Shown piece by piece: positions 15,249-40,893 of a stretch of 64,000 nt of DNA. The notes under the pieces were generated by a model. It saw only the letters and a program-made list of their open reading frames with translations, searched no databases and was not told the origin of the DNA. The stretch spans positions 949 through 64,948 of the forward strand of contig DAINBB010000001.1 of assembly GCA_036733165.1 (NCBI GenBank), written 5' to 3'. Both the position numbers and the translations under genes were made by a program. The first letter of the stretch is position 1; the number at the start of each line of letters is the position of its first letter. Source of the DNA: Halobacteria archaeon. GTDB taxonomy: Archaea; Methanobacteriota_B; Thermococci; Methanofastidiosales; NM3.

Positions 15249-15371
15249 TGCCGGGGGCGGGACTTGAACCCGCGGCCTCTCGATTTCCCAGTTATCGCGC
15301 CTTAGACGTTATGAATCCAAATGCTAAGAACTTATGAGTCGAGCGCTATAACCAACCTAAGCCACCCCGGC
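15249..15371 (-). tRNA. tRNA-Met(CAU), elongator type, with a 48-nt intron (15285..15332) at position 37/38
   Basis: Acceptor GCCGGGG/CCCCGGC, anticodon stem CTCGA/TCGAG, T-loop TTCAAGT; BHB helix CTCA/TGGG with two 3-nt bulges; 75 nt after splicing; CCA not encoded. Confidence 0.93.
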
Positions 15372-21409: not shown

Positions 21410-21859
21410 ATGGTGAGGGGTTCTCACGATTCCAATGGAGGCCGATCTTTGAAGGAAATTGTGAATATCCGCCCACACCACCTATTGTGTATAATAAACT
21501 TCGATGGGTTAGGATATAGCACAGAGTTCGTGGAGAAACTGAGAGTCGTAAAGGAAAAGATAGATGAAGACTCGATTGTCATAAGGTTGACCGAGGGCCA
21601 GGACGACATCTGCAAGACATGTCCGAACAGGATGAAATGCAGCCAAATGAACTACACCAGGATCCTCGACAAAAAGGTGATGATAGCGACAGACCTGGAG
21701 TATGGCAAAGAATACGGGGCGGCCAAGTTGATAGACATCATCAAGAGCAAGATTACATGGAACCTGCTTAACATGATATGCGAAAACTGCGCTTTTTATT
21801 ATAAATGCAAAAAGATTTTCCTGAACAAGATGCCGATCTCCAACGGGAACTGTTGTTGA
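21410..21859 (+). CDS. DUF1284 family Cys-rich protein
   Basis: RPHHLLC, DDICKTCP, CENC motifs. Confidence 0.85.
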   Translation: MVRGSHDSNGGRSLKEIVNIRPHHLLCIINFDGLGYSTEFVEKLRVVKEKIDEDSIVIRLTEGQDDICKTCPNRMKCSQMNYTRILDKKVMIATDLEYGKEYGAAKLIDIIKSKITWNLLNMICENCAFYYKCKKIFLNKMPISNGNCC

Positions 21860-21932
21860 TTGCATATTTTTAACGCCACCAGATAGAAAGATATATAATA
21901 TCAACTGTGTTTCTATACTAGTATTTTCAGTG

Positions 21933-22010
21933 GGGGCCGTGGGGTAGCTTGGCCCATCCTTTGGGGTTCGGGGCCTCAAGTCTCGAGTTCAAATCTCGAC
22001 GGCCCCACCA
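21933..22010 (+). tRNA. tRNA-Pro(CGG), CCA encoded
   Basis: GGGGCCG/CGGCCCC acceptor, anticodon stem TGGGG/CCTCA with loop TT-CGG-GG, T-arm TCGAG-TTCAAAT-CTCGA. Confidence 0.95.
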
Positions 22011-37565: not shown

Positions 37566-37594
37566 TGATTATATATTTATACCAATAGCGAAGA

Positions 37595-37852
37595 ATGTTG
37601 TTAATGACGGACGAGGGGGAGATGGGTTACAAAGATGTATCCTATATTCTGGGATTGAAAGTAATCCCTGGAAAAGAGAACGACATAAGGGAAAAAATAG
37701 AAAAAATCCCAGGTGTTTTCAAATCCTTCAAGGCCCTTGGACAATTCGATGTGATACTTATGGCCAAGGACCTCAAGGAGGCGAAGTCTGTCATGAAAAA
37801 GGTCAAGAACATTGAAAACGTCTTAGACGTTTTCTTCATTGAACTTGAATAG
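37595..37852 (+). CDS. Stand-alone Lrp/AsnC ligand-binding (RAM) domain protein
   Basis: ILGLKVIPGKENDIREKIEKIPGV...GQFDVILMA pattern; no HTH. Confidence 0.8.
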   Translation: MLLMTDEGEMGYKDVSYILGLKVIPGKENDIREKIEKIPGVFKSFKALGQFDVILMAKDLKEAKSVMKKVKNIENVLDVFFIELE

Positions 37853-37861
37853 GGTGGTACT

Positions 37862-38092
37862 ATATCAATAAAGGGCCTTATAGGCATTAGGACAGAGGAC
37901 TGCGAGATTCCCCGAAGGATCCTTGGGGAGATGCCTGAGGTCCTTATGATAAAAAAATCCAGAAACTACCATGACATGATCGCCATTGTAAAACATGATA
38001 GCATAGCTTCACTATCAGATTTCATTTTTCACAAGATCAGGGCTATTGATTGCATAAGAGACACGGAAACCACCATATTGTTGGAGGAATGA
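37862..38092 (+). CDS. Second stand-alone RAM domain protein; no ATG/GTG/TTG start at the domain N-terminus (ATA start or readthrough)
   Basis: Same frame as the upstream gene, after TAG 37850-37852: ISIKGLIGIRTE...MPEV...HDMIAIVKHDSIASLSDFIFHKIRAIDCIRDTETTILLEE*; the IRxIDxIxDTET ending is typical of RAM domains. Confidence 0.7.
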   Translation: MSIKGLIGIRTEDCEIPRRILGEMPEVLMIKKSRNYHDMIAIVKHDSIASLSDFIFHKIRAIDCIRDTETTILLEE

Positions 38093-38097
38093 TTCTT

Positions 38098-38778
38098 ATG
38101 AAGATGGTAATAAAGTACGGCGGGTCGTTGCTTTTCAAAGATGGAAAGATAAACGTTGACTTGATTGACAACATATGCGACATTGTGAGAGAACTCCACG
38201 AAAAGGGGAATGAGATAGGCATGGTGATCGGTGGTGGATTCACTGCCAGGCAATATATCTCCGCCCTCAATCCATATTTCGCCGAGGCTAAAAAGGACTA
38301 TGTTGCCGTTCTGGCAACCAGGATGAACGCCATGCTCTTCGTATCAAGATTGTCAGACATATGCTGCCCGAAGCCTCCGGCCCACTTCGAGGACATATTG
38401 GACTGTCTTGGTTCCGGGAAGATGATCGTGTCGGGCGGGATGCAACCTGGACAGTCAACGAACGCCGTCGCCACCTTGCTGTGCGAGGCCATGGGGGCAA
38501 GGGTCCTGGTAAACGCCACGAACGTGGACTTCATATACGACAAGGACCCCAAGAAGTACAAGGATGCCGTTCCAATCACCACCATGGACTACAAGGGGCT
38601 CAAAGGGATCATATCCAACATAGACTCGACTGCGGGCGGATACGACATGTTCGACATGGTGGCGGCAAAGAACATAGAGAGATCGGGCATCGAATTGCAC
38701 TTCATCAATGGAAATGACCCAGAGAACCTTTACAAAATAATTGACAATGTCCAGGTGGGCACAGTAGTAAAAGGTTAA
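38098..38778 (+). CDS. pyrH: UMP kinase
   Basis: VIKYGGS, GGGFTAR, PGQST, TNVDFIYDKDP; likely start ATG 38098. Confidence 0.95.
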   Translation: MKMVIKYGGSLLFKDGKINVDLIDNICDIVRELHEKGNEIGMVIGGGFTARQYISALNPYFAEAKKDYVAVLATRMNAMLFVSRLSDICCPKPPAHFEDILDCLGSGKMIVSGGMQPGQSTNAVATLLCEAMGARVLVNATNVDFIYDKDPKKYKDAVPITTMDYKGLKGIISNIDSTAGGYDMFDMVAAKNIERSGIELHFINGNDPENLYKIIDNVQVGTVVKG

Positions 38779-39819: not shown

Positions 39820-40143
39820 TCACTTTTTGAGTATATCCTCAAGGATCCTTATCCCCTTGTTGAACGCCGGCATGCCTGCGGTCAGGAGCACCACCCTGAG
39901 TATGTCCACTATCTCCCCCTCGGTTATGCCAAGCTCTGCCATACCGGACCTCATCTGTTTTTCGGTCGCGTTTTCATCGCATTTTGACGCCACTATGCCG
40001 ATGGCGATCAGTTTTTGGGTCTTGTAATCCAGTTCTCTTCCAGTATATATTACCCCGTTGAGCTTGTTGATGCCCTCGTAGAGCTCCGGATACTTTTCCC
40101 TGACTATCCTCATGCCCTTGCCGTAATAGACTTCATCCTTCAT
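39820..40143 (-). CDS. Carboxymuconolactone decarboxylase (AhpD-like) family protein
   Basis: MKDEVYYGKG...LDYKTQKLIAIG...GITEGEI...AG; fused to sfsA in the ORF track only because of the sfsA frameshift. Confidence 0.85.
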   Translation of the reverse strand: MKDEVYYGKGMRIVREKYPELYEGINKLNGVIYTGRELDYKTQKLIAIGIVASKCDENATEKQMRSGMAELGITEGEIVDILRVVLLTAGMPAFNKGIRILEDILKK

Positions 40144-40174
40144 GAAGTATGATTTGTTCGCAAGAGATATAAAG

Positions 40175-40893
40175 CTATGTAGAGGGCAATGCAAGGGGGA
40201 TGGGCCCTTCATAGCGTATGGTCCTTGCATCGTAGGAAAAGAGGAGCGGATGCACGCCGCCTCATCTACTGCAACGGCAAGCCTCTCCGAGAACAGGGGA
40301 TCTGTATCTGTATTGGGGGAGAACACGGATGCATATGGGGCAAATACCAAGAATATGATATGGCCCTCTTCCCCAGACCTCACCGCTTCTATCAGCTCCG
40401 AGACATGCCTCGCGCCCCTCTTTGTAGGAGCGTCTGGGAACAGGGCCGTACCACCGACGGAGAGCGAACATCCCTTGACCTCCACCCAGCACCTTCTCGA
40501 CCCGTTGTCCAACATATAGTCCATCCTGCTCCGCCCCAGAACGGTCTCGGGCCTGATGAGGTCCTCATTTGACTGGAAAGGCATCATTCGATTTTCAAGC
40601 AGCCAATCCGAGACATGACGATGATACGAAGAGTTTGCGAGAACCCATCTATCCTTCACCAGGCCCGCCAACAGGTCCCATCCCGTCTTGCGTTTGGGAT
40701 TCTGCCCGGCACTGCGCAAAAGGACCCTGTTGCCTGGAAAGAGTATCTCGGACAGCCGGCCCGGGTCATGGATGTGGACAAGCGTCTGGCCCCCCTCTCC
40801 GCCCACGTCCGCCACGCCAAGGAATCTGTTCCTCCTTTGAATGAACTTCCCTTCGGCATCGGATGGGAGGTCCATCACTATCTGCGACGTCAT
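40175..40893 (-). CDS. sfsA: Sugar fermentation stimulation protein SfsA, frameshifted near 40258 as sequenced
   Basis: RRNRF, HIHDPGRL, VEVKGC, FPDAPTKRGARH; one extra G restores EAGVHPLLFSY...YEGPIP and the stop at 40175; span 719 nt (3n-1). Confidence 0.9.

Follow-up and report, generated by a model that had tools for sequence, protein, structure and literature searches.

The demi-FFRPs are small proteins of about 75 to 83 amino acids that carry a RAM domain and have no HTH domain; DM1 of P. horikoshii (2e1a and 2cvi), STS042 of S. tokodaii (2zbc) and TTHA0845 of T. thermophilus (2djw) are examples. Stand-alone RAM proteins form dimers and octamers. Association with a larger regulator has been described as well: DM1, a stand-alone RAM protein, and FL11, an Lrp regulator, make a hetero-octamer in vitro (PMC2995911). 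Here we describe two neighboring open reading frames, ORF1 and ORF2, in a 64-kb stretch of archaeal DNA (the window, meaning the whole stretch that was analyzed). Their products resemble the demi-FFRPs in size and in lacking an HTH domain, and the second is without a canonical start codon at its front.

Near-cognate AUH starts (AUA, AUU and AUC) are established in bacteria and are included in NCBI table 11. The described cases comprise the AUU starts of E. coli infC and pcnB and, in S. aureus, the AUA starts of infC, ccpN and citZ and the AUU start of cvfC1 (PMC13009471). In S. aureus, AUA and AUU starts that stand behind extended Shine-Dalgarno (SD) sites yield about 10 to 30% of the output of AUG (PMC13009471). 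The archaeal factor aIF1 discriminates against non-canonical starts (PMC6237735), and according to a 2021 review, non-canonical events in archaeal translation have been shown for elongation and termination only (PMC8211752). Initiation at AUA, AUU or AUC in archaea is without experimental demonstration, the evidence being confined to near-cognate peaks that were discarded in ribosome profiling of Haloferax (PMC7261190).

Two other known systems resemble the layout of the locus. In Haloferax and E. coli, termination-reinitiation needs either an overlap between the two genes or a distance of roughly 10 nt or less; intergenic distances of -8 to +10 nt predict it, and gene pairs within that range are enriched for subunits of heteromers (PMC10666635). 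The other system is the decoding of UAG as pyrrolysine in methanogens, which the locus recalls in that two coding segments of a methanogen-related archaeon are separated by an in-frame TAG.

In the window, ORF1 occupies positions 37595 to 37852 of the plus strand. It encodes 85 amino acids if it starts at the ATG at 37595 and 82 if it starts at the ATG at 37604, and the latter codon aligns with a conserved M-(V/T)-(D/E) in orthologs. The junction with ORF2 reads ...ATT GAA CTT GAA TAG GGT GGT ACT ATA TCA ATA AAG GGC..., in which the TAG at 37850 to 37852 ends ORF1. The first-pass annotation had reported that the frame stays open for 79 codons behind this TAG, and both the sequence and the ORF coordinates bear it out: the frame runs from 37853 to a TGA at 38090 to 38092, and the earliest ATG, GTG or TTG within it is the ATG at 37931, which is codon 27.

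The gap between the two genes is filled by an SD site, G-GGTGGT (37852 to 37858), which begins on the final base of the TAG of ORF1. Counted against the general archaeal anti-SD rather than the 16S rRNA of this genome, the site forms approximately 7 bp, including two G-U pairs. Behind it stands the ATA at 37862 to 37864 that we propose as the ORF2 start codon, on the grounds of the aligned ATN codons in orthologs and of its SD spacing. It lies 7 nt past the GG of GGTG and 9 nt past the ORF1 stop, and the GGTGG (37853 to 37857) is 4 nt ahead of it, as had been noted earlier. From this codon ORF2 extends over 37862 to 38092 on the plus strand, 76 amino acids plus the TGA stop. The similarity in spacing to the rpl41e start that had been pointed out from the sequence is also real. 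The rpl41e micro-ORF (GKKPRKWKKKGKMRWKHLKKRMRRKKKKAKMRK; 31417 to 31304, minus strand) is preceded by the same SD and spacer arrangement as ORF2, TAA-GGTGGT-AAG-TTG, and begins with TTG.

Are both products RAM domains, as had been claimed at first? ORF2 scored 36 bits with Pfam PF01037, the Lrp/AsnC ligand-binding domain (cut-off 25), which places it in the family. A profile of its orthologs retrieved the stand-alone RAM protein 2zbc from the PDB (E 1e-9), as well as 2cvi and 2e1a. Together with the predicted fold and dN/dS, these matches identify ORF2 as a stand-alone RAM-domain protein. For ORF1 the sequence match was weak: 17.9 bits against PF01037, under the cut-off of 25, with comparably weak matches to ACT_4 and NapD, although an ORF1 profile did find the RAM domain of PH1519 (E 2.4e-4). 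We modeled an artificial ORF1-ORF2 fusion that starts at 37604 with AlphaFold (AF2) as a single chain, and obtained a mean pLDDT of 81 and a pTM of 0.72. Each half of the model took the ferredoxin-like order beta-alpha-beta-beta-alpha-beta (E-H-E-E-H-E), and the best Foldseek matches were RAM domains: 2djw (TTHA0845), 2zbc (STS042), 2cvi (DM1/PHS023) and 2cg4 (AsnC). Hence, the claim stands for ORF2, while ORF1 is best described as a divergent, stand-alone RAM-like protein whose predicted fold, rather than its sequence score, points to the family. At 76 to 85 amino acids, neither product has room for an HTH domain.

The likeness to the demi-FFRPs thus includes length, lack of an HTH domain, the PF01037 match of ORF2 and the fold, with a target-normalized Foldseek TM-score of about 0.75. 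Unlike those proteins, the two products described here are diverged tandem paralogs that are fixed beside pyrH and a CODH-like gene. A profile-profile comparison of ORF1 with ORF2 gave a probability of only 25%, and on this sequence comparison they would be old paralogs at best.

The UMP kinase encoded beside the two genes assigns the window to Candidatus Methanofastidiosia: its best named relative is 71% identical, and the NCBI names of two ORF2 homologs agree. We collected syntenic loci from ENA, JGI, NCBI and Logan assemblies and obtained about 11 distinct ones, which we divided into three clades by the identity of their ORF2 to that of the window. Clade A (61 to 80% identity) contains L002, L034, L008, L003/L004, L001/L035 and L037/L038; clade B (about 45%) contains L006, L007 and L009; and clade C (about 41%) contains L005, L010 and L011/L036. 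ORF1 has an ortholog at every syntenic locus, and the gene order pelota - cofE - CODH-like - ORF1 - ORF2 - pyrH - thioredoxin-like - endA is conserved. In clade B (L007, 208 to 3448), the block CODH-like - RAM1 - RAM2 - pyrH has divergently oriented neighbors, which encode the large subunit of a NiFe-hydrogenase, an Fe-S protein like FrhB and a HycI protease.

The first-pass annotation had left it to orthologs to tell whether the two domains are fused or separate. They are separate at all syntenic loci, with an ATN codon at the aligned position. The stop codon of ORF1 varies: the window, L002 and L034 have TAG, clade B has TAA, and TGA is used in clade C as well as in L008, L003, L001 and L037. 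The frame of ORF2 relative to that stop varies too. ORF2 is in frame with it in the window, in L008/L003 and in clades B and C, in the +1 frame in L001/L037 and in the +2 frame in L002 and L034. The distance from the ORF1 stop to the ORF2 start is 9 nt in the window and 8 to 12 nt in orthologs.

Counted from one aligned codon, the length of ORF2 is the same, exactly 76 codons, in each of the 11 distinct sequences. At this codon, clade C (L005, L010 and L011) has ATG, clade B (L006, L007 and L009) and L034 have ATC, L002, L008, L003/L004, L001 and L037 have ATT, and the window has ATA (37862). The AT is therefore invariant and the third base variable, at divergences at which synonymous sites are saturated. 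An SD of the GGTG(A/G)T type precedes the codon in every lineage, and the distance from its GG core to the ATN is 8 nt in the L001 type and 7 nt in all the others. In the window as a whole, canonical starts behind GGTG most often have this 7-nt spacing too (14 of 39, including the starts of the rpl41e-like and CODH-like genes). All 11 sequences thus have an ATN at a spacing appropriate to the SD, and in the window no ATG, GTG or TTG lies in frame upstream of it. Of the options offered at first, ATA initiation is the one that this comparison favors, with ATG, ATT or ATC at the same codon and the same SD spacing in the orthologs. An ordinary ATG in orthologs, which had been named as what would speak against it, is found in clade C and ambiguously in the L001 type, but not in most of the orthologs.

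How strictly a near-cognate start is required differs among the lineages. The ORF1 stop itself closes the ORF2 frame in clade B, L008/L003 and the window, where only three or four non-start codons lie between it and the ATN; in L009, there is no ATG, GTG or TTG within approximately the first 100 nt of ORF2. Five codons downstream, L001, L002, L034 and clade C have a TTG (Leu6), a possible start that would keep most of strand beta1. Because this TTG could serve there, the strict need for an AUH start is confined to clade B, L008/L003 and the window. We also considered the ATG within the GGTGATG of L001/L037. It is probably not a conserved start, since it forms part of the SD, lies 2 nt past the GG core and, in L008/L003, does not share the frame of ORF2. 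Screening the window for SD-spaced AUH codons at least eight codons ahead of the first canonical start, we found a real gene only at 37862; the other matches were shadow frames.

Gene finders clip the front of ORF2 because its start is most likely a rare ATA, ATT or ATC codon. Public calls for the non-ATG orthologs (L006, 176 to 382; L007, 5173 to 5415; L008, L003, L002 and L034) give 53 to 71 amino acids instead of 76 or miss the gene altogether: the truncated calls have 53, 60, 60, 71 and 71 amino acids, and L007 is uncalled. The NCBI record behind L006 has a 68-amino-acid product that begins at an internal ATA (176), eight codons past the SD-spaced ATC.

We then asked whether the part of ORF2 that precedes its first ATG evolves as coding sequence. 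Across the whole gene, dN/dS was 0.06 to 0.26 for close pairs within each clade, with one exception, L005/L011, whose value of 0.43 comes from just 5 differences. Over the 23 codons that ORF2 of the window has before its first ATG, dN/dS was 0.14 to 0.50. The codons for I-[TS]-I-K-G show synonymous changes between lineages (for example ACA/ACT, ATA/ATC, AAA/AAG and GGT/GGC). The segment K-G-L-I-G-I near the N-terminus is invariant in orthologs and forms beta1 in the AF2 model. We conclude from these substitution patterns that ORF2 is a live gene under purifying selection and that its N-terminus is coding.

Perhaps the TAG is instead read through, by pyrrolysine insertion or a natural suppressor, to give a single 165-residue tandem-RAM protein whose domains are linked by X-G-G-T? 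ORF2 of the window is indeed in frame with the TAG and open from the next codon on; the artificial fusion was modeled as two packed ferredoxin-like domains at the pTM given above; and several methyl compounds have been proposed as substrates for some Methanofastidiosa MAGs (PMC7302380), which makes a Pyl system conceivable. A low-level read-through product might also be argued from the in-frame position of ORF2 in four or five lineages. The orthologs, however, speak against a fusion. Their ORF1 stop is TGA or TAA, or is TAG with ORF2 in a shifted frame, so that the conserved in-frame TAG expected of UAG recoding is absent from the ORF1 end, and no single recoding event could yield the fusion in all lineages. 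TAG is moreover a common stop here, ending 14 of the 61 long ORFs in the window, and the products of the TAG-ended dacZ and AMMECR1 genes are equal in length to their L001 and L002 orthologs. In protein libraries of 5.8 billion clusters and 1.8 billion representatives, neither a word-index search with the artificial fusion nor a full HMMER scan revealed a fused homolog; the HMMER scan returned only separate proteins of about 70 to 86 amino acids and one unrelated 315-amino-acid double Lrp (E 1e-3). A scan of genome contigs with the artificial fusion likewise gave no fused homolog, and no tRNA-Pyl lies within the 64-kb window. The in-frame position of ORF2 follows from a layout of stop, 9 nt of SD and spacer, and start. 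Read-through, one of the options raised initially, is hence very improbable. A TAG joining two domains would have meant an expansion of the genetic code, and the comparison gives no support to it: with a TAG that is not conserved, a high frequency of TAG stops and a variable frame relation, the locus is not a member of the pyrrolysine-decoding group. On this comparative evidence, the in-frame TAG is an ordinary stop, and ORF1 and ORF2 are two separate genes.

The missing start codon might also be an artifact, the true codon at 37862 being ATG, or a very recent mutation that has made ORF2 a fresh pseudogene in this genome. One irregularity in the window could be taken to favor an error, in that the SfsA and carboxymuconolactone-decarboxylase-like (CMD/AhpD) genes form one 357-amino-acid ORF at 39820 to 40893 on the minus strand, whereas they are separate in L001 and L002 (242 and 236 amino acids for SfsA, 124 and 107 for CMD); this single ORF may have arisen from an assembly error of the frameshift type, or the fusion may be real. 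The junction between ORF1 and ORF2, by contrast, lies within 3,162 nt over which two contigs, one from JGI (metagenome 3300010350) and one from Logan (SRR5007228), match the window at 100% identity, and L003 and L004, from two different samples, have the same junction as each other. Reasoning from the sequence, we find that a GGG run of altered length would give no in-frame ATG, GTG or TTG. A canonical start is likewise missing in at least five other lineages, in which dN/dS is far under 1. Because independent assemblies match the junction and the feature recurs elsewhere, the base error that had been suggested is about as improbable as read-through. Somewhat less remote, and still unlikely, is that ORF2 is made from another start, either the internal ATG at 37931 or a nearby codon such as the ATA at 37868 used in codon-independent reinitiation. 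Gene callers did pick internal or downstream starts (giving 53, 60, 68 and 71 amino acids, the 53-amino-acid product being the public call from ATG 37931), the ATA at 37868 is also near-cognate, and reinitiating ribosomes may select less strictly. Starting at 37931, however, would delete beta1 (residues 91 to 97 in fusion numbering) and alpha1 (residues 101 to 108) in the AF2 model, where the Met is residue 110; the loss of beta1 had been predicted from the sequence, and with it would go KGLIGI, the most conserved segment. That ATG has no SD and is not conserved, there being no Met at the position in L001 or in clades B and C. In place of the codon at 37868, other clades have ACG or ACA, and its distance from the SD core is 13 nt. 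The codon at 37862 alone is ATN in every sequence.

Several features in and around the locus were noted in passing. A perfect 9-bp hairpin, GAAAACGUC-UUA-GACGUUUUC, lies at 37814 to 37834 in the 3' end of ORF1 and arises from the codons for E-N-V-L-D-V-F. We considered it as a recoding or masking signal and set it aside: its fold z-score was -1.3, and by eye it is not conserved in L002 or L005. Elsewhere in the window, a 123-nt Rfam tRNA match at 15249 to 15371 (minus strand), unreported by ARAGORN, is probably an intron-containing tRNA. A tRNA-Pro(CGG) that ARAGORN predicted at 21933 to 22010 (plus strand) is below the gathering score of Rfam and overlaps a long ORF on the minus strand (21509 to 21979) at the end of that ORF.

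Upstream of ORF1, we found the TATA-like stretch to which the first-pass annotation had drawn attention. The element, TTATATATTTATA, lies at 37569 to 37581 on the plus strand, 4 nt past the stop of the CODH-like gene and 14 to 22 nt ahead of the two candidate ORF1 ATGs. A similar TTTATA element is present at a comparable distance, 14 to 25 nt ahead of ORF1 ATGs, in L002, L008, L001, L007/L009 and L005/L010, and thus in all clades. Given the short distance between the element and the ATGs, the leader of ORF1 is probably very short or missing altogether.

Downstream, pyrH (UMP kinase, of the amino-acid-kinase family; PF00696 in orthologs) occupies 38098 to 38778 on the plus strand and begins 5 nt past the ORF2 stop. 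Its SD, GGAGG (38083 to 38087), lies inside the conserved ORF2 C-terminus ...LEE* (TTG GAG GAA TGA). There is also an ATGA stop/start overlap at 38089 to 38092, which is in frame with pyrH in the window and out of frame in L001; hence, the conserved pyrH start is the ATG at 38098. The conserved TATA element, the 5-nt gap between ORF2 and pyrH and the position of the pyrH SD within ORF2 suggest an ORF1-ORF2-pyrH transcript. Judged by this arrangement, pyrH is probably in the same operon as ORF1 and ORF2, and a separate promoter that gives a leaderless or short-leader ORF1-ORF2-pyrH transcript is plausible.

The reading that we prefer, and to which we assign a probability of roughly three in four, is that two separate RAM genes lie in a conserved TATA - ORF1 - ORF2 - pyrH operon and that ORF2 starts at the ATA at 37862, directed by the SD and probably coupled to ORF1. 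The GGTGGT that overlaps the end of ORF1 would position the small ribosomal subunit with the ATA at the preferred 7-nt distance, and the initiator tRNA would pair with the AU of AUA. As the ORF1 stop is just 9 nt upstream, the ribosomes that start on ORF2 would probably be for the most part those that have just finished ORF1, whether by termination-reinitiation or by local re-binding. The output of ORF2 would then be tied to that of ORF1 and yet be lower, a coupled dose from a weak start. The products of ORF1 and ORF2 probably form a RAM1/RAM2 hetero-oligomer, by analogy with the systems above. We infer all four of these points, namely the use of AUA, the coupling to ORF1, the hetero-oligomer and the low, coupled dose.

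The proposed start is like the bacterial AUU and AUA starts in that an AUH codon stands at a normal distance from a long SD, is conserved in relatives and opens a gene for a small protein of regulatory type. The bacterial starts attenuate translation, and the same effect would be expected for ORF2. Unlike the bacterial cases, archaeal start selection depends on aIF1, aIF1A and aIF2 and not on IF3, all three AUH codons and ATG replace one another within the ORF2 family, and the start lies 9 nt past an upstream stop. That distance is within the range that predicts termination-reinitiation, and those in orthologs (8 to 12 nt) are within or close to it. With the coupled pairs of Huber et al. (PMC10666635), ORF1 and ORF2 share a single direction, a short gap and products that are likely subunits of one complex. 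Classical coupled pairs, in contrast, overlap by 4 or 1 nt and restart at ATG or GTG, whereas ORF1 and ORF2 have an SD in the gap and an AUH codon at the restart.

A more far-reaching version of this proposal is speculative, and we consider it doubtful, if less remote than read-through or a sequence error. It would hold that AUA, AUU and AUC are stable, interchangeable starts in Methanofastidiosia, used only with a long SD directly behind an upstream stop; that nearly all ORF2 product would come from ribosomes fresh from ORF1; that they would set a fixed, sub-stoichiometric ratio of RAM2 to RAM1; and that RAM1/RAM2 would be a detachable ligand sensor of the adjacent UMP kinase and not an Lrp partner. 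A parallel for such a sensor of an amino-acid-kinase-family UMP kinase would be the regulatory subunit of aspartokinase with its paired ACT domains.

The comparative case is well supported and involves no new mechanism. Archaeal starts are usually assumed, also by gene finders, to be AUG, GUG or UUG, and most ORF2 lineages are without a canonical codon at the start position. With the truncated ORF2 calls, the beta1 strand that the RAM fold needs is missing from databases. Hence, the ORF2 family offers a clean, small system in which near-cognate initiation in archaea can be tested, and possibly also whether such initiation depends on termination-reinitiation.
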